Origin: a virus
Virus genome (UHGV): UHGV-0104965
Length of the DNA: 16,371 nucleotides
Strand: one strand, 5' to 3'
The notes beneath the pieces were generated by a model. The model made no database searches, was not told where the DNA came from, and was given only the letters and a program-made list of their open reading frames with translations. Both the position numbers and the translations under genes were made by a program. This document shows, piece by piece, positions 2,142 to 12,640 of the stretch (positions within the stretch are counted from its first letter, which is position 1; each line of letters opens with the position of its first letter).

Positions 2142-3194
2142 TTATTCCCCTGCCAGCTGCCTTACCTCACTTACCGTCTGGTTGAAACGTTCCTCTTCCA
2201 GTTCTACGCCGATAGCCTGGCGGCCCAGTTCAATGGCTGCTTTAACAGTTGATCCCGAGCCCATAAAGAAATCAGCTACCACATCGCCGGGCCTGCTGCT
2301 GGCGTTGATGATTTGCCGCAACATATCAGCGGGCTTTTCGCACGGGTGTTTGCCTGGATAGAACTGGACTGGTTTATGGGTCCATACGTCCGTATATGGC
2401 ACGGCAGCTGTCACAGAGAAATGCCGCCGAAGTGATTTGTACTCTTCGAGCAGCTCTGAATATTTGCGATTCAACGAATGCCACAGAGCCACCAGCTGGT
2501 GGTGTGGTGTTGCCAGTTCGCCGTTCTGGTGCTTTTCGATGGCTACCTGCGTGAAAAGGGACTGAAGTTTCCGGTAGTCTGATTCATTCGGTAATTGCCA
2601 CTGGCTACCGCTGAACCAGTGAGACACCATGTTCTTCTTTCCAGTCGCATCGGCTATTTGTTTTGAGGATATGCCAAGCGCTTCACGTGCATCCCGGAAA
2701 TAAGATATTAGGGGAGTCATTACATGCTGCTTCAGCTCGCTTCCCTTCTCAGCGTACCCGTCGCTCTTTGGTTTATACGGCCCCTGGTAATGCTCAGCGA
2801 ACAGGATGCGTTCTGTTGCAGGGAAGTAAGAGCGCAGGCTCTCTTTATTACAGCCATTCCAGCGGCCCGACGGTTTAGCCCAGATGATGTGGTTCAGGAT
2901 GTTGAACCGCTCACGCATCATGATCTCAATGTCTGCCGCCAGGCGGTGACCGGAGAAAAGATAAAGACTGCCAGCAGGTTTAAGCACTCGCCAGAATTGT
3001 GCGAGGCACATATCAAGCCAGCGAAGATAATCCTCATCCCCTTTCCATTGATTGTCCCAGCCGTTGGGTTTCACTTTGAAGTACGGCGGATCCGTAACAA
3101 TAAGGTCAATGGTGTTATCTGGGAGGGTTGCGAGGTATAGCAGGCAGTCAGCGTTGACAAGCTCAACACTGTTTATATTTACAGTATTTTTCAT
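2142..3194 (-). CDS. DNA methyltransferase, beta-class (N6-adenine or N4-cytosine), orphan phage enzyme
   Basis: Motif IV TDPPY near the N-terminus and SAM-binding motif I FFMGSGST near the C-terminus (beta-class order: IV then I). 350 aa, no adjacent restriction endonuclease gene. Confidence 0.9.
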   Translation of the reverse strand: MKNTVNINSVELVNADCLLYLATLPDNTIDLIVTDPPYFKVKPNGWDNQWKGDEDYLRWLDMCLAQFWRVLKPAGSLYLFSGHRLAADIEIMMRERFNILNHIIWAKPSGRWNGCNKESLRSYFPATERILFAEHYQGPYKPKSDGYAEKGSELKQHVMTPLISYFRDAREALGISSKQIADATGKKNMVSHWFSGSQWQLPNESDYRKLQSLFTQVAIEKHQNGELATPHHQLVALWHSLNRKYSELLEEYKSLRRHFSVTAAVPYTDVWTHKPVQFYPGKHPCEKPADMLRQIINASSRPGDVVADFFMGSGSTVKAAIELGRQAIGVELEEERFNQTVSEVRQLAGE

Positions 3195-7096: not shown

Positions 7097-9034
7097 TCAG
7101 GCGGCTGCACCCGCCTTTTGATTTGCACATAATTCAGGAAGATTTGCTTCTACCAGCGCACGAGCGAACGGCGGCGGTACTGCGTTACCGCAGCGCGCTA
7201 CCTGCTTGTCTTTGGCGTAACGATTGCCGCGATAGTCCTGATCGATAACGTAGCCGTCAGGGAAGCCCTGCGCCTTATAAAGCTCATGCGGTTGCAGCAT
7301 GCGCATTCCGATATCGACGATCTGGTACTTAACCCCCTCGATCGTCACCAGCCATTCATCCTCGCTATCACCGCAGTAGGTTTCGAGGAATGTCCGGACC
7401 TCGCCAACGTGCTGGCCACCAGCGGTAATCGTCGGCATAGGTGTATCCATGGTCTGACCGTCGCGGCAGGTTCCGCGCAGCTTCACCAAGTGCGACGCAA
7501 CTACCGCGTGATGATCAACAGTAGTGACAGAGTGGGCAGGCTCATCCATACCAACACCCGGCCCCGTGTAATTCCCACCATAGTGCTTTGCCAGGAACGC
7601 GCTCACCGTTGCAAACTTATTACCACCAGCAGTGACCGTGCCGAGCGGGTTATTCAGTTGAAGAACACGCGGTTCTTGCCCTAGGCGTTCGCCGTACCCC
7701 ATCTGGATCAGTGTTGGAGTTACCAGCTGCGACTTACCGCCACCACCTGCAGTAATCGTCGCGCTCGGTTCGTCAGCCCTGTGCCCAACACTAGCGCCAA
7801 ACTGGCGGGCGATGACCGGCGCAACCACGCACGCGCGGGACTGCCTGAGGATTGTATGAGCGGGTTTATCCAGCGGGCGCGGCTTTGCCTGGTACTCACT
7901 GCCGCCATTGCCAGCCAGGAACGGTGTCAGGGCGGCCTCAACTACGCCAAGCGCATGCCCATTCCCGCCCGGACGCGCCGACGTACCAGCGGTGACAGTT
8001 GGTACCGGCTCGGTCACTGGCTGCCCGGTGGCCCCGGTGCGGAATTTAGTAAGATGCGGTACCGCCAGCGCGTAGCCATGCTTTTTAGTGATGGTCTGCA
8101 ATGGCTCTAACAACGATTGCCCGCGGAAACAGTCATAACCTCCTTTCGTCGTGGTGTGGTTACACTTCACGATGAAAGGTGATGCGCTTTCGATAACAAA
8201 GCGCTGGATGCCGCGCGCGATACGTTTGAGCGTATTTTCCGCCAGCGGCTTTTTGCGGTCGAAGATGGAACGGGCCGGAATGTTCCAGTCAATGCACTCC
8301 GCCGCGGTACGCCATGGCGCCAGCTTGCCGCTTTGTACTTCCAGTGATTTTGGATCCCCATGAGTCGCTTCAGGCCAATGAATCTTGCGGCCGTCACAGC
8401 GCATGACCATGAAGAAACGCCTTCTGATCGTCGGCGCGCCGTAGTCACAAGCGCGCAGCTCACGATAATCGACCTCATAACCAAGCCCGGCGATCAGCTG
8501 TTGAGCCTGCTGGCCGTGCGGCTCAATGGCAAGAAATTCACAAACCTCAGCCAGTGCTGGGTGATTCGCCGCGATCCCCGTCGACAGCATGCCGACAAAT
8601 GCCTCGAATGTTTCACCAGCACGCTCAGGATCCGGGCGTAATTCTTCATCCAGCAGCGGGCCCCATGTCTTAAATTCTTCGACGTTCTCCAGCATCATGA
8701 CTCGGGGACGTACTGCCAGCGCCCAGCGCAGAACAATCCACGCCAGCCCGCGAATCTCTTTCTTAACTGGCTTAGCGCCCTTCGCTTTGGAAAAGTGGCG
8801 GCAGTCAGGGCTAAACCAGGCCAAGCCGACAGGTTTACCGCTGGTGGCTGCGCTTGGGTCAACGTCAAACACCGACTCGCAATAATGCAGCGTGTCAGGG
8901 TGATTCGTCTTATGCATCGCAATAGCGTTTTCGTCGTGGTTGATAGCGATATCCACGCTACGCCCGATCGCCACTTCAATGCCGGTACTCGCGCCGCCGC
9001 CACCAGCAAAGTTATCAACGATAATTTCACGCAT
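7097..9034 (-). CDS. DNA (cytosine-5)-methyltransferase with enlarged, four-module target-recognition region
   Basis: ORF 7097..9088 (GTG) trimmed to ATG at 9034 (MREIIVDNFAGGGGASTG, motif I). Motif IV region SPDCRHFS, motif VI ENV, motif VIII RRR, C-terminal motifs IX (QGFPDGY) and X (CGNAVPPP). Between VIII and IX are four degenerate repeats of P-x-x-T-[VI]-T-A-G-G ... [FT]-L. Confidence 0.9.
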   Translation of the reverse strand: MREIIVDNFAGGGGASTGIEVAIGRSVDIAINHDENAIAMHKTNHPDTLHYCESVFDVDPSAATSGKPVGLAWFSPDCRHFSKAKGAKPVKKEIRGLAWIVLRWALAVRPRVMMLENVEEFKTWGPLLDEELRPDPERAGETFEAFVGMLSTGIAANHPALAEVCEFLAIEPHGQQAQQLIAGLGYEVDYRELRACDYGAPTIRRRFFMVMRCDGRKIHWPEATHGDPKSLEVQSGKLAPWRTAAECIDWNIPARSIFDRKKPLAENTLKRIARGIQRFVIESASPFIVKCNHTTTKGGYDCFRGQSLLEPLQTITKKHGYALAVPHLTKFRTGATGQPVTEPVPTVTAGTSARPGGNGHALGVVEAALTPFLAGNGGSEYQAKPRPLDKPAHTILRQSRACVVAPVIARQFGASVGHRADEPSATITAGGGGKSQLVTPTLIQMGYGERLGQEPRVLQLNNPLGTVTAGGNKFATVSAFLAKHYGGNYTGPGVGMDEPAHSVTTVDHHAVVASHLVKLRGTCRDGQTMDTPMPTITAGGQHVGEVRTFLETYCGDSEDEWLVTIEGVKYQIVDIGMRMLQPHELYKAQGFPDGYVIDQDYRGNRYAKDKQVARCGNAVPPPFARALVEANLPELCANQKAGAAA

Positions 9035-9926
9035 TGACGGCCCCCTGCATGCTGTTGAAGAGACCACCAGCGGTCGTGATAATTTCACTCATCGGCATAC
9101 GTTCGAGCCACAGCTGGTTGATATTGGCTTTCAGCTTGTTCTGCTGTGAAACAGGTAGAGCGTCAGCCCCTTCAATCTGGTTAAACACCAGGCCAACCTC
9201 AAGAGGCCAGATGCGCGACTCTGCATCAGGCGTTGCAATGGGAGCAGGCATTACATTTTCCGGCACCGACGGAAGGGCCAATTTTGCCGCGGCGAATTGA
9301 GCCAATGACAATGCGGCACGCCCTTTTTCTTCCAGTTCGGTGCGATTGATATAGCTGAATCTTTCACCACGCCAGGTTTTGTCAAAGACAGCGATTGCCC
9401 CGGCAAAAAATGCGCTGGTGGGTTGCTGCTTCTCGTCAGCGGGAACAAACCAAACAGGAAGATCGAACCCAATACGACCACGAATAAACATGATGTGATC
9501 GGCATCCTCCGGCCACCATGTTTCACTTGTGGCTGACTTCACGAGGTATATGTAACGACCACCTTGATCACGCATCGCCATTGTGTGATTCATGATGTGG
9601 GTCATGCCAGTGATGGCCTGCTTTTCATGGTACTGAGAACGGCTATATGGCGGATTTGCAAACGCGGCGCCACCGAGTTCTGCCAGACGCTCTGACCAGT
9701 CCTGCGTCAGCGCGTTATCTTCGGCGGTATACCATGCAGGGCATTTAGCATTGCTATCGTCTGCAAACAGATCCAGAACCATCGGCCCAAATATCGAATT
9801 GATGCCCCAAAACAACAAATCCGGAGTGCGCCACTGATCGCCAACCTCTTTCAATTCATGCGCTGGCTTTGAGCGCAGTTCAGCCAGCGCGCGGCAATAT
9901 TTGTTATCAGCATTCATGCTCATCAT
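9027..9926 (-). CDS. Phage DNA N6-adenine methyltransferase (phage Dam family) with about 100-aa C-terminal extension
   Basis: WRTPDLLFWGINSIFGPMVLDLFADDSNAKC...AFANPPYS: the W-x-T-P ... D-x-x-A ... NPPY pattern of the phage Dam family. ATG overlaps stop of the O-like gene (ATGA at 9923-9926). Confidence 0.9.
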   Translation of the reverse strand: MMSMNADNKYCRALAELRSKPAHELKEVGDQWRTPDLLFWGINSIFGPMVLDLFADDSNAKCPAWYTAEDNALTQDWSERLAELGGAAFANPPYSRSQYHEKQAITGMTHIMNHTMAMRDQGGRYIYLVKSATSETWWPEDADHIMFIRGRIGFDLPVWFVPADEKQQPTSAFFAGAIAVFDKTWRGERFSYINRTELEEKGRAALSLAQFAAAKLALPSVPENVMPAPIATPDAESRIWPLEVGLVFNQIEGADALPVSQQNKLKANINQLWLERMPMSEIITTAGGLFNSMQGAVNA

Positions 9927-10786
9927 TTCGCTCCCCTGAAGCCAGCTGGAATGGCTTTATCTGGTCCACCAAATTTCATCGGATCATGCTTACGGATTGA
10001 GCCCCAATACTGTCGTTCTGGACGTCCTGCTGCGTTCCACTTATTTGCGGATTGCAGGTAGCCTGGGAATTTTGTTGGCAGAAACAGCGTTGTTGGGCGC
10101 AGATATTCGGCCATTTTCAGATCCTCGCCCCACTTCTCGACGCTGTAATCCACCACCAACAGCAGCTCATCGGGCGTAAACCCGTCAGCCAAGCGAGCCC
10201 GGATGTTTTCCAAGGATGATTTGCAGACCTGATACCGTGATCCGGTGGTCTTGTTCAGATGTGATAAAACCTGCTTCGCCTGATCGGTGATAACCACCAC
10301 AGGGTCGGGTTGCGCAGCAACCGGACAAGAATGTTTTTTATCTGATGGATCAGTAGTTGTATTTACTGACGGATCCCCCCCAGATTCTGACTGGTGAAAA
10401 CCGCCTTTTTCATCGTTTTTTGATGCCTCAGATTTTGACGCGTCGGTTTTTGAGGCATCAGATTTTGATGCGTCAGAATCTGACAGGTGAGAAAAGGCAG
10501 CAGCCTGTAATTTCGCAACATTGAGCTGGTAAACGTTCGATGCATTGCGGTTGCCTTTACGGCGCTGCTGGCGGGTTAACCACCCGTCTTTTTCCAGTTG
10601 AGATATGGCTGTGCGAACCGTGCTCTCACCGGCACCAATCTGGCGCGCGATGGTAGCGATGGAAGGCCAGCTAACCCCTTCATCACTGCTGAAGTCTGCC
10701 AGACGCGCCATGATGGCAACGCTGGACAGCTTCATGCCAGAAGCGGCACAAGCGTCCCAAACGTAACCCGTTAATTTAGTGCTCAT
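9923..10786 (-). CDS. Replication initiator (lambda O-like function): N-terminal winged-HTH, repetitive linker, conserved phage C-terminal domain
   Basis: N-terminal HTH ...WPSIATIARQIGAGESTVRTAISQLEKDGWL; central low-complexity repeats SDSDASKSDASKTDASKSEASKND encoded by iteron-like DNA repeats; C-terminal domain ...VLSHLNKTTGSRYQ...ENIRARLADGFTPDELLLVVDYSVEKW typical of phage replication proteins. ATG at 10786. Confidence 0.85.
   Translation of the reverse strand: MSTKLTGYVWDACAASGMKLSSVAIMARLADFSSDEGVSWPSIATIARQIGAGESTVRTAISQLEKDGWLTRQQRRKGNRNASNVYQLNVAKLQAAAFSHLSDSDASKSDASKTDASKSEASKNDEKGGFHQSESGGDPSVNTTTDPSDKKHSCPVAAQPDPVVVITDQAKQVLSHLNKTTGSRYQVCKSSLENIRARLADGFTPDELLLVVDYSVEKWGEDLKMAEYLRPTTLFLPTKFPGYLQSANKWNAAGRPERQYWGSIRKHDPMKFGGPDKAIPAGFRGAK
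10325..10484. repeat. Candidate origin of replication: four iteron-like repeats plus adjacent AT-rich tract inside the initiator gene
   Basis: CAGATTCTGAC (10381), CAGATTTTGAC (10429), CAGATTTTGAT (10459), CAGAATCTGAC (10474); 23-bp direct repeats GATGCCTCAGATTTTGACGCGTC / GAGGCATCAGATTTTGATGCGTC 30 bp apart; AT-rich segment 10325-10375. Same layout as lambda ori within gene O. Confidence 0.55.
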
Positions 10787-10955
10787 GGTCGTCCTTTAAC
10801 TCTGTAAACTTGCGCTTGAATTGTTCGAGCGGGCTGAAACATTCGTGGTTATAACCATCCCGCAGGTAGATAACTCGTTGAGTCTCTGGCTCCCACCGGA
10901 TAACCCGAACGGGGATCCCTCTGCGGTCTTTGAACCTTCGGTTAACTTCGCGCAT
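10776..10955 (-). CDS. Small hypothetical protein (59 aa), unlisted, translationally coupled to the initiator gene
   Basis: Hand translation codon by codon: MREVNRRFKDRRGIPVRVIRWEPETQRVIYLRDGYNHECFSPLEQFKRKFTELKDDHEH. ATG at 10955 with AGGAAGG about 10 nt upstream; stop TAA (10776-10778) overlaps the initiator start by 11 nt. Preferred over the composition-poor 126-aa ORF 10796..11176 in another frame. Confidence 0.5.
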   Translation of the reverse strand: MREVNRRFKDRRGIPVRVIRWEPETQRVIYLRDGYNHECFSPLEQFKRKFTELKDDHEH

Positions 10956-11127
10956 AAGCGTTTCGCCTTCCTGTAGTAAACCCCCACAATTGCGACCGCC
11001 CGACTGTGGTTACATGGCACCCAGCGGTTTGCTATTCTGCGTTCATACCGAAACAACGGAGCGCCCGGTACCGGGATCATCCTGAGTTGCGGCAAACGGT
11101 TAAAAGCCGTTAAACTGGTCATGCGGA

Positions 11128-11733
11128 TTACTTCTCCATACAAGATTTGTCTGCCACGACGCCCGGAGCTGCACACTCGCGGGCGTCACTCTTTTCCGGC
11201 GCACAAAACACACGGAAAAGCAGCGTCAAATGTTCCTGCCACTTAGCCATCACCTGATAGCTGTTCTCTTCGATCTGGGTGCGTTCCTGAGCATCAATAA
11301 CGCCGTCAGCGGTAGCTTTACGAACGTATTGTGAATGCCTGCCGATCCACTCAACTGACTCCATGAGACGCTGGTTGATATCGCCGTTCTCAATCTCTTC
11401 AACATCAGCCAATGGCACAAAAACACCGTTCGAGTGACGTGCAATAGCGTTCGCTATGTGGTTTGAACCACCAGCACGTTGAAGCACCATCGCCCAACCG
11501 AGCGGGAAGATCTGATCGCCATCGGTACGCAGCCGGTTAAACAGCGCGTTCTCGGTCACACCCAACCACTCAGCAGCTTCTGAATATCCGCCAGGCAGCT
11601 CGGTGATCGTTTTTTTGATTGCGGCCACCAGCCAGGCTGGCTGCTTATCTACTTTCCATTCAGGTTCTATACCCACGGCTAGGTCCTCCCTTCTGTGGTT
11701 ATTTCTGATCGTTAGGCGATGTATTCTTGCCAT
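11128..11733 (-). CDS. CII-like lysogeny-establishment regulator (phage 186 CII / YdaT-like family)
   Basis: Position immediately downstream of cro-like gene; HTH-like segment YSEAAEWLGVTENALFNRLRTDGDQIFPLGWAMVL resembles the phage 186 CII pattern. ORF 11128..11760 begins with GTG; first ATG at 11733. Start uncertain (no clear SD); overlaps cro-like gene end. Confidence 0.6.
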   Translation of the reverse strand: MARIHRLTIRNNHRREDLAVGIEPEWKVDKQPAWLVAAIKKTITELPGGYSEAAEWLGVTENALFNRLRTDGDQIFPLGWAMVLQRAGGSNHIANAIARHSNGVFVPLADVEEIENGDINQRLMESVEWIGRHSQYVRKATADGVIDAQERTQIEENSYQVMAKWQEHLTLLFRVFCAPEKSDARECAAPGVVADKSCMEK

Positions 11734-11914
11734 AACGTTCTGGGTTGAATTCCAGTTCACCAGCAGTTCGATACGCAGCTTCAGCAGCTCGTCCTTTAGG
11801 GATTAAGCGTCCGGGGCGATTACGCCACTGGTAAACGGCCTCACTGGTGATGCCAAAAAATTCGGCAACTTTCTCAGTGCTGCCGAAATGTTGTTCAATC
11901 TCGTCGGTTGTCAT
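11699..11914 (-). CDS. Cro-like repressor (YdaS/Cro-type HTH)
   Basis: 71 aa with HTH STEKVAEFFGITSEAVYQWRNRPGRLIP; strong AGGAGG SD (11919-11924) before ATG at 11914; divergent from the CI-type repressor across an operator-rich region. Confidence 0.8.
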   Translation of the reverse strand: MTTDEIEQHFGSTEKVAEFFGITSEAVYQWRNRPGRLIPKGRAAEAAYRTAGELEFNPERYGKNTSPNDQK

Positions 11915-11927
11915 GAAGCCTCCTTAG

Positions 11928-11991
11928 CTAAGTTTGGTTAGATATTAATAACCAATCTAACTTTGGTCAATAAAAACTAAGATTACTTAGT
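11928..11991. promoter_or_regulatory. Right operator region with PR and three CTAAG-type repressor binding sites
   Basis: Sites CTAAGTTTGGTTAG (11928-11941), CTAACTTTGGTCA (11957-11969), ACTAAGATTACTTAGT (11976-11991). On the minus strand TTGACC (-35; plus 11965-11970), 17 bp, TAATAT (-10; plus 11942-11947) forms PR for cro; the CI-type repressor gene starts at 12014. Confidence 0.6.
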
Positions 11992-12013
11992 CTTTTTTAA
12001 ATTTGGTGCTTTC

Positions 12014-12640
12014 ATGGAAACGGTTGGTCAGCGCATTAAAGCCCTACGCAGGGTTACAAAAACCTCTCAAAAAGAACTGGGTAAGTTCTGCGGGGTTAGT
12101 GACGTAGCGGTGGGTTATTGGGAAAAGGATGTGAATATCCCTAACGGAGAATCGCTGGTTAAGCTGGCTAAATTCTTCAATACATCAATAAATTACATTC
12201 TTTACGGCACTGAATTTGAAGGTACCCTCATAACTAAAATGAGGCGTGTGCCCGTGATTTCCTGGGTTCAAGCTGGGCAGTTTACGGAATGTAAGGCCGC
12301 TGATTTATTCAGTGATGTTGATAAATGGGTTGAAACATCACTACGCATTGGGGATAGCTCGTTCGCTTTAGAGGTCAAAGGGGATTCAATGACCAATCCA
12401 AATGGCCTCCCAACAATCCCTGAAGGGGCAACCGTTATTGTTGATCCAGATGCCGAACCCCTTCATGGCAAGATTGTTGTTGCGCGTATTGATGGCACTA
12501 ACGAAGCGACTGTTAAAAAACTGGTCATTGATGGCCCACAAAAATTTTTAGTCCCACTAAATCCTCGCTACCCCAACCTCCCGATCAATGGTAACTGCCT
12601 CATTATTGGCGTAGTTAAAGGCGTTCAGTACGAACTCTAA
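12014..12640 (+). CDS. CI-type prophage repressor (N-terminal XRE HTH, C-terminal S24 LexA-like peptidase)
   Basis: HTH QKELGKFCGVSDVAVGYWEKDVNIPNGESLVKLAKFF; C-terminal autocleavage domain with Ser in GDSM and Lys in VKKLV; divergent from cro-like gene. Confidence 0.95.
   Translation: METVGQRIKALRRVTKTSQKELGKFCGVSDVAVGYWEKDVNIPNGESLVKLAKFFNTSINYILYGTEFEGTLITKMRRVPVISWVQAGQFTECKAADLFSDVDKWVETSLRIGDSSFALEVKGDSMTNPNGLPTIPEGATVIVDPDAEPLHGKIVVARIDGTNEATVKKLVIDGPQKFLVPLNPRYPNLPINGNCLIIGVVKGVQYEL

Follow-up and report, generated by a model that had tools for sequence, protein, structure and literature searches.

A DUF4222 gene that appears to lie nested in a conserved ymfM-like gene just upstream of a phage replication initiator

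Which reading frame is translated immediately upstream of the replication initiator gene in UHGV virus genome UHGV-0104965? The window, meaning the whole stretch of DNA that was analysed (16,371 nt), comprises the immunity and early-right region of a lambdoid temperate phage. On its minus strand, just before the initiator gene, a 59-aa open reading frame (ORF) lies within a longer ORF in another frame. A first-pass annotation made from the sequence alone had favoured the short ORF and presented the two frames as alternatives, only one of which would be translated. Our comparison of homologous loci indicates that this was a false dichotomy. The locus appears to be a conserved dual-coding pair, a ymfM-like gene and a DUF4222 gene, with both frames translated and both feeding the initiator. 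We put the probability of the whole explanation (a real DUF4222 gene nested in a real ymfM homologue, coupling to the initiator and the function proposed below) at about 0.75. The features on which the argument turns are as follows.

10776..10955, minus strand: DUF4222 gene (59 aa plus stop), recognised by Pfam PF13973, PHROG 1343, the ratio of nonsynonymous to synonymous substitution rates (dN/dS), an AlphaFold2 model and a conserved start.
10971-10966, minus strand: GGAAGG, the putative Shine-Dalgarno sequence of the DUF4222 gene, 10 nt before the ATG; the same bases encode R-K of the ymfM-like protein.
10796..11122, minus strand: ymfM-like gene (108 aa plus stop), the likely real extent of the ORF listed as 10796..11176.
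10796..10955, minus strand: putative dual-coding segment of 160 nt, in which DUF4222 codons 1-53 coincide with the ymfM-like tail, read in the +1 frame.
10796..10798, minus strand: TAA that closes the ymfM-like frame; it precedes the initiator ATG by 9 nt, in the frame of the initiator, and overlaps the AAGGA ribosome-binding site (10792-10796).
9923..10786, minus strand: O-like replication initiator gene, with Pfam HTH_36 and Phg_2220_C and the PHROG annotations 'replication initiation O-like' and 'primosomal protein'.

The 59-aa ORF runs from an ATG at 10955-10953 to a TAA at 10778-10776 and encodes MREVNRRFKDRRGIPVRVIRWEPETQRVIYLRDGYNHECFSPLEQFKRKFTELKDDHEH, a protein of 7.5 kDa with an isoelectric point of 9.4, in agreement with the small basic product that the first-pass annotation had described. 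It was missing from the list of ORFs because it falls one codon under the 60-aa threshold. In the Pfam family DUF4222 (PF13973), where the cut-off is 27 bits, the protein scores 65.2 (E=3.8e-18), residues 3-53 covering profile positions 4-52 of 53, and PHROG 1343 matches it at E=5e-32. Homologues fell into 124 protein clusters in a database search; almost every one bears the name 'DUF4222 domain-containing protein', and they come from Enterobacter, Citrobacter, Escherichia, Salmonella, Klebsiella, Kosakonia, Pantoea and Providencia. By itself, then, the gene is not new, contrary to what had been implied: it belongs to an already catalogued prophage gene family. In E. coli prophages it is a routine call of the NCBI Prokaryotic Genome Annotation Pipeline (PGAP), placed after a gene labelled 'YmfL family putative regulatory protein' and before the replication gene. 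In the loci examined, DUF4222 is a small protein of Enterobacterales prophages and islands that is encoded just 5' of a replication gene.

Selection on the 59-aa frame is readily seen. The first set examined for start position and selection comprised 14 genome loci, two E. coli loci and the window; a larger collection of 98 loci, from genomes and IMG/VR, gave 90 distinct sequences. Among the 90, the start position is conserved as ATG in 84, GTG in 5 and TTG in 1, and a purine-rich motif lies 5' of the start in all sequence variants. The median dN/dS (Nei-Gojobori) was 0.086 in the DUF4222 frame compared to 2.3 and 1.5 in the other two frames, so that conservation of the frame across homologues, the check that had been suggested for it, came out in its favour. 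Variable alignment columns were distributed 20/16/47 over DUF4222 codon positions 1, 2 and 3. The conserved core of the family (D10, G13, V16, V18, V28, R32, Y35, C39, F46 and F50) is present in full in the window protein. When 28 sequences were aligned, among them RgdR (the one member of the family that has been characterised), G13, V16, Y35 and F46 were invariant and the other core residues at least 90% conserved.

The AlphaFold2 model, built with 27 sequences, has a predicted local distance difference test score (pLDDT) of 87 and shows a five-strand barrel with a short helix (residues 2-52), the last six residues being disordered. Used as a profile against PDB sequences, the DUF4222 alignment found no match even at E <=10. 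A near-invariant G-Y-x-H-E-C motif (window residues 35-39; Y35 invariant, C39 at least 90% conserved) lies on the predicted barrel; with one His and one Cys per chain, it could be an intersubunit metal site or a binding surface. On these comparative grounds the DUF4222 gene is genuine and has a predicted ribosome-binding site and a start of its own, as the first-pass annotation had proposed.

The longer frame had been dismissed as poorly protein-like. The location given for it and the description of its C-terminal half stood, but its N-terminal 55 codons are conserved and the dismissal as a whole did not survive comparison. The long ORF is homologous to YmfM of E. coli K-12 (hhalign probability 99.1%, E=6e-19; PHROG 1170 at E=1.5e-15), although its tail resembles that of YmfM only because DUF4222 is conserved in the other frame. 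It also shares with ymfM its position between ymfL and the replication gene. The likely start is the ATG at 11122, which has GGAG upstream and lies 5 nt past the TAA stop (11128-11130) of the preceding CII-like gene. From this start, the first 55 ymfM-like codons fill the stretch of about 172 nt that NCBI annotation leaves as a gap between the CII-like gene and DUF4222.

If only the 59-aa DUF4222 frame were coding, the long ORF would be a chance or artefactual reading and the upstream 172 nt would be non-coding regulatory sequence. PGAP annotates the locus in just this way, with DUF4222 alone and the gap left open, and the long ORF has no Pfam or NCBIfam family match. Its C-terminal half is low-complexity, predicted to be disordered, and has a ratio of nonsynonymous to synonymous differences per site (pN/pS) of about 2. 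The gap, however, behaves as coding sequence. Its length across loci is 163, 169, 172 or 175 nt, values that differ by multiples of 3; the N-terminal part of the ymfM-like frame has a pN/pS of 0.41 while the other two frames are at about 1.0; and all 20 invariant columns of a 30-sequence ymfM-like alignment fall in residues 1-51. Rfam and terminator/promoter scans were empty in the gap, and homologues of the N-terminal domain exist elsewhere as separate genes of 61-63 aa. The same account is also contradicted by the overlap itself, where the long frame is open in every locus, codons that would create a stop are wholly avoided and the stop position is fixed. We consider it quite improbable. In the predicted structure, residues 8-62 of the ymfM-like protein fold with a pLDDT of about 90 and residues 65-108 are disordered; this tail is variable, its sequence being no more than what the +1 frame of DUF4222 yields. 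The ymfM-like N-terminal domain, of about 60 residues and predicted to be folded, is judged by its substitution pattern to be under purifying selection and a genuine gene.

The C-terminal half of this gene coincides with DUF4222. The +1 (ymfM) frame of DUF4222 is open in 98 of 98 loci and ends 159-165 nt beyond the DUF4222 start, while the +2 frame of the overlap contains a median of 4 stops. For a stop to arise in the +1 frame, a DUF4222 codon must end in TA or TG and the next one must begin with A (or with G after TA). Val, Leu and Ile codons that would create such a stop were found before A at 0 of 317 positions, compared to 128 of 398 for the same TA or TG endings before C or T. TA or TG endings make up 51.6% of such codons before A in the replication genes that adjoin DUF4222 at these loci. 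The avoidance extends to single sites: codons 16 and 19 switch with the next base, and GTG, GTA and ATA are used there only when C follows. When synonymous codons were resampled with local usage, the probability of an open frame was 0.04-0.20 per locus. The position at which the frame closes is equally constrained. The ymfM stop is at DUF4222 codon 53 in 86 of the 90 distinct sequences and at the indel-shifted equivalent, codon 54 or 55, in the other 4, and it is always built from a rare xTA codon (TTA, ATA or GTA) followed by A or G.

It might be argued that the ymfM N-terminal domain is real but that its run through DUF4222 is incidental, the open frame and its stop coming from shared ancestry or codon preference. 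The tail shows no amino-acid constraint, the N-terminal domain works without the tail in other phages, and permutation of synonymous codons within the gene gave a weak result (P=0.14-1.0), the gene's own codon pool being already depleted of stop-creating codons. Shared ancestry is difficult to reconcile with the divergence of these sequences, which form 22 clusters at 90% nucleotide identity and are near saturation at synonymous sites between lineages (proportion of synonymous differences 0.5-0.8), yet hold not one of the 317 possible risk codons. Codon preference fares no better, as codons 16 and 19 use GTG and ATA freely before C and never before A, the neighbouring genes use the 'forbidden' codons at 52%, and the stop always comes from rare codons at one equivalent position. 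An incidental read-on is thus unlikely, though not negligibly so. Judged from codon usage across these lineages, selection is keeping the +1 frame open and fixing the position of its stop. The evidence indicates an overlap that is read in two frames and in which only the DUF4222 product is constrained as a sequence.

Loci in which the two genes have been separated serve as natural controls. In loci L099 and L100 the pair has been split by an antirepressor (pRha/ANT) gene, which sits exactly between DUF4222 and the gene for the ymfM N-domain (L099 3165-3869; L100 3219-3857). The ymfM N-terminal domain survives there as a stand-alone gene of 62-63 aa beside the CII-like gene, DUF4222 remains beside and overlapping the replication gene, and each DUF4222 gene has 3 stops in its +1 frame. 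Loci L108-L110 encode a 61-aa homologue of the ymfM N-terminal domain (hhalign probability 97.6%), which is followed by DUF4222 with a 4-nt overlap; the +1 frame of this first DUF4222 gene likewise has stops. A second DUF4222-like ORF (probability 83%), missed by the gene finder, comes next and overlaps the initiator. It is 60 aa long (L109 2674-2856, with equivalent 175-nt 'gaps' in L108 and L110), and its overlap with the initiator is an ATGA; these phages carry tandem DUF4222 paralogues. The RgdR gene has seven +1-frame stops, and across the separated genes and RgdR the number is 2-7. The distant DUF4222 gene at L104 3001-3207 has a stop-free +1 frame with no overlapping gene annotated. Taken together, the separated loci suggest that the two products are separable, that DUF4222 travels with the replication gene and that stop avoidance is specific to the overlap.

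They also make a fusion protein unnecessary. Because the two frames differ by -1, the locus could in principle encode a single YmfM N-domain-DUF4222 fusion through programmed -1 frameshifting, with no independent initiation at DUF4222, and one database protein, P0164 (114 aa), is such a fusion. In P0164, however, the switch of frame falls midway through the DUF4222 domain, the pattern expected of an indel. Near the junction there is no conserved slippery heptamer of the form X_XXY_YYZ, and the DUF4222 start is conserved along with its purine-rich motif and, in most loci checked, is preceded by an in-frame stop 54 nt upstream. With the two domains encoded as separate genes in L099, L100 and L108-L110, we regard frameshifting as very unlikely.

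What might maintain an open frame whose peptide sequence is free to vary? The overlap with the next gene suggests an answer. In the window, the DUF4222 stop lies 11 nt inside the initiator gene (ATGAGCACTAA), exactly as the first-pass annotation had reported, and DUF4222 overlaps the next gene by 8-44 nt in all 90 distinct homologous sequences. The conserved C-terminal 'D-H-E' of DUF4222 is encoded by GAC-CAT-GAG, which holds the initiator ATG (10786-10784 in the window); the AGGA of the initiator (10795-10792) is likewise within DUF4222 coding sequence. The initiators that follow are of at least five N-terminal types (MSTKLT, MSRIFD/MSQIFE, MSLLMP/MSLLLK, MNTLIQ and MSSKLH), which match different sets of PHROG replication-initiator families. 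More distant DUF4222 genes (L099, L100 and L104) overlap their replication genes by 4 nt, and rgdR overlaps an unrelated DUF927 primase/helicase gene, also by 4 nt. Since the overlap is kept across unrelated initiators, the primase of the RgdR locus included, DUF4222 seems to associate with the replication module generally and is unlikely to act through one specific initiator protein.

The junction between the ymfM stop and the initiator reads TAAAGGACGACCATG. As this stop is in the frame of the initiator, YmfM and the initiator would be fused without it. Ribosomes of both upstream frames would end at the initiator start, 9 nt before it in the ymfM frame or 5 nt past it in the DUF4222 frame, and the initiator would be made by termination-reinitiation from both. 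A premature stop in the ymfM frame would strand ribosomes about 150 nt short of the initiator ribosome-binding site. We suggest that the long ymfM tail may serve mainly to bring ymfM-frame ribosomes to the initiator start. Coupling would account for a tail that varies freely in sequence yet keeps its open frame and its stop position.

For the function of the DUF4222 product, the best guide is a protein of E. coli O157:H7 Sakai, RgdR (ECs1581), whose gene lies on a phage-inducible chromosomal island, the prophage-like element Sp7 (O-island 51). RgdR has pleiotropic regulatory effects: it activates LEE1 and type III secretion, represses motility and raises Congo-red binding; it binds DNA without sequence specificity, and its RGD motif (residues 20-22) is important for activation of type III secretion (PMC3378721). 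RgdR and the window protein share the Pfam domain (E=2e-23 and E=4e-18, respectively), are 46% identical over the core by BLASTP and are both small and basic, and both genes lie immediately 5' of a replication gene that they overlap. They differ in several respects. RgdR has 99 aa, with an N-terminal extension that carries the RGD and a basic C-terminal tail, both of which are lacking in the window protein: the RGD aligns with E3-V4-N5, and the window protein ends 9 residues past the core where RgdR runs about 30 residues further. The RgdR gene precedes a DUF927 primase/helicase, not an O-like initiator, and has no overlapping ymfM-like gene.

The three phenotypes of RgdR resemble loss of H-NS silencing, which is a lead. 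With RgdR a pleiotropic regulator, the suggestion in the first-pass annotation that the small protein may be a regulator or replication accessory factor is a reasonable one. In our model the DUF4222 product would be a Tudor/SH3-like beta-barrel co-produced with the initiator at the onset of lytic growth. By analogy with RgdR, it probably binds nucleic acid or a host transcription or replication protein. It is possible, though we would hold the view only tentatively, that DUF4222 is a small early nucleic-acid- or host-factor-binding protein that aids host takeover at the onset of replication and does not act through a particular initiator. In fold comparisons, bacterial Tudor/SH3-like barrels, free-standing or attached to larger proteins, that bind RNA polymerase (the C-terminal domain of UvrD/PcrA, CarD and the RNA-polymerase-interacting domain of Mfd) or nucleic acid (KOW) were 7-15% identical in sequence and scored no higher than many unrelated small barrels, among them eukaryotic Tudor domains, C39 peptidase lobes and DUF1653.

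Several observations weigh against the combined explanation. In the overlap, pN/pS is 0.18 in the DUF4222 frame and 2.0 in the ymfM frame, which thus has no amino-acid constraint there, and the ymfM tail may lack function as a peptide. One of the controls, L104, has a stop-free +1 frame without any known overlapping gene. The codon statistics ignore phylogeny, although the sequences fall into 22 diverged clusters and codons switch within single sites. The GGAG is 10-11 nt from the ymfM-like ATG and the DUF4222 Shine-Dalgarno sequence is 10 nt from its own start, both of which are longer than the optimal spacing. The evidence for the ymfM-like frame is all comparative, and the coupling role of its tail is one that we infer. 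As the window protein has neither the RGD motif nor the C-terminal extension, the activities of RgdR may not transfer to it.

Existing annotation is divided over this locus. In the K-12 record NC_000913.3, an unannotated 59-aa DUF4222 ORF is nested in ymfM (1204001-1204180; L018 6002-6181), with a TTG start and GGAG 8 nt upstream. The same 359-nt K-12 sequence is 'ymfM' in NC_000913.3 and DUF4222 without ymfM in PGAP-annotated MG1655 and 38 other sampled genomes. The records of phages LLS, Eeyore and vB_EcoM-720R4 list the long ORF only, and in none of the records inspected were both genes present together. If both frames are used, every inspected record omits a gene. The matter is not confined to K-12, as the e14-type locus is found in 2009 of 5426 complete E. 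coli genomes (about 37%). A search of the literature gave no paper that links ymfM to DUF4222, to the overlap or to ribosome profiling, and the ymfM/DUF4222 overlap appears to be previously undescribed.

For E. coli K-12, the overlap directly affects how a published functional assignment should be read. The ymfM gene (b1148, 'cell division inhibitor YmfM', SfiC) of the e14 prophage encodes 112 aa and has the same frame relation to DUF4222 and the same stop position as in the window. It differs in that the N-terminal domain, beyond the first ~20 residues, is a different sequence variant and in that the e14 initiator is truncated and fused (ymfN). Expression of the K-12 ymfM ORF causes filamentation, and ymfM was identified as the SOS-inducible division inhibitor SfiC in a study that used the ORF cloned into pBAD24 and a ymfM deletion; no frame-specific mutants are mentioned in the preprint version (bioRxiv 10.1101/2020.11.19.390815). 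The clone carries the ribosome-binding site, start and codons 1-53 of DUF4222, which amount to its entire predicted folded domain. As the clone and the deletion both cover the two frames, the division-block phenotype cannot yet be assigned to one product, and division inhibition (a block of the FtsZ ring) has been shown only for the K-12 fragment, which carries both.

The filamentation phenotype, with the records that annotate the long ORF alone, might be taken to mean that only the ymfM-like frame is translated and that the 59-aa ORF is spurious. We find this barely credible. Purifying selection in the overlap sits in the 59-aa frame and not in the long one, and the product of the 59-aa frame matches Pfam strongly, has a confidently predicted fold and counts hundreds of homologues, stand-alone genes among them. 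Genetic evidence exists for RgdR of the same family, and the clone on which the phenotype was seen holds most of DUF4222 as well. The dual-coding explanation invites a bolder proposal, which is speculative and which we think rather doubtful: SfiC filamentation would be due wholly or partly to the nested DUF4222, DUF4222 proteins including RgdR would be widespread prophage and island effectors made with the initiator and reprogramming host division or transcription as the element becomes active, and the ymfM tail would be only a 'ribosome bridge'.

Genes embedded out of frame in other genes are familiar in phages, for example Rz1 with Rz in lambda and B in A and E in D in phiX174. As in those cases, a longer gene harbours a second gene in a different frame of the same strand, and both persist. 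The present locus differs in that the nested gene is the constrained one, and the overlapping half of the host gene is an unconstrained, predicted-disordered tail apparently kept as an open frame only. It is in this respect a clean natural case of a frame held open by selection without amino-acid constraint, and its end at the next gene's start suggests that selection has acted on translational coupling. The placement of DUF4222 before unrelated initiators is, in addition, a lead to the function of the domain across Enterobacterales prophages and islands.

A small gene just 5' of an initiator gene is also found in another enterobacterial mobile element, the satellite phage P4, where Cnr (ORF106) is a small negative regulator of the alpha initiator. 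The likeness is positional only. Cnr was considered as a homologue and rejected, being annotated as DUF5375 and having an hhalign probability of 0.1% against the DUF4222 profile. Protein P0122 (2473 aa, 15 matched stretches) is a eukaryotic C2H2 zinc-finger repeat protein and was set aside as a false positive.

The wider setting is that of an early-right operon. Escherichia phages Eeyore, LLS and Flotzy share 94-98% identity with large parts of the window, and the gene order is cro, a cII-like gene of the ymfL family, the ymfM-like gene, DUF4222 and the replication initiator. The upstream genes are:

12014-12640, plus strand: CI-like repressor.
11699-11914, minus strand: Cro.
11128-11676, minus strand: CII-like/YmfL-family regulator gene, GTG start at 11676; NCBIfam NF041471 at E=1e-55, PHROG 101.

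The mechanically listed CII-like ORF of 210 aa (11128-11760, minus strand) over-extends. The start is likely the GTG at 11676, behind GGGAGGA, which gives 182 aa as in the PGAP-annotated close relative L001; the length of the gene equals the PGAP annotations of both L001 and L002. A promoter and terminator scan of 10600-12100 gave as its sole signal a likely pR-region promoter near 11942-11970 and detected no terminator, and Rfam at gathering thresholds gave no match anywhere in the window. An oop-like antisense RNA or terminator in the 172-nt gap had been entertained and was dropped when the gap turned out to be coding.

Downstream of the initiator on the minus strand follow, in order, two DNA methyltransferases, Ant, an HNH protein, Q, a third methyltransferase, holin, endolysin and Rz. 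The 16 kb thus hold three DNA methyltransferase genes (9027-9926, 7097-9088 and 2142-3194, all on the minus strand), one of them Dam-like, one a large C5-cytosine enzyme and one a further methyltransferase. The Dam-like gene comes directly after the initiator, with no lambda-P-like or DnaB/DnaC-like helicase-loader gene between them. Within the initiator gene, positions 10418-10477 consist of four tandem 15-bp units (consensus TTTTGATGCGTCAGA on the plus strand), which encode SDASK repeats of the initiator. The origin of lambda lies inside its O gene and, by analogy, these repeats may be candidate origin iterons.

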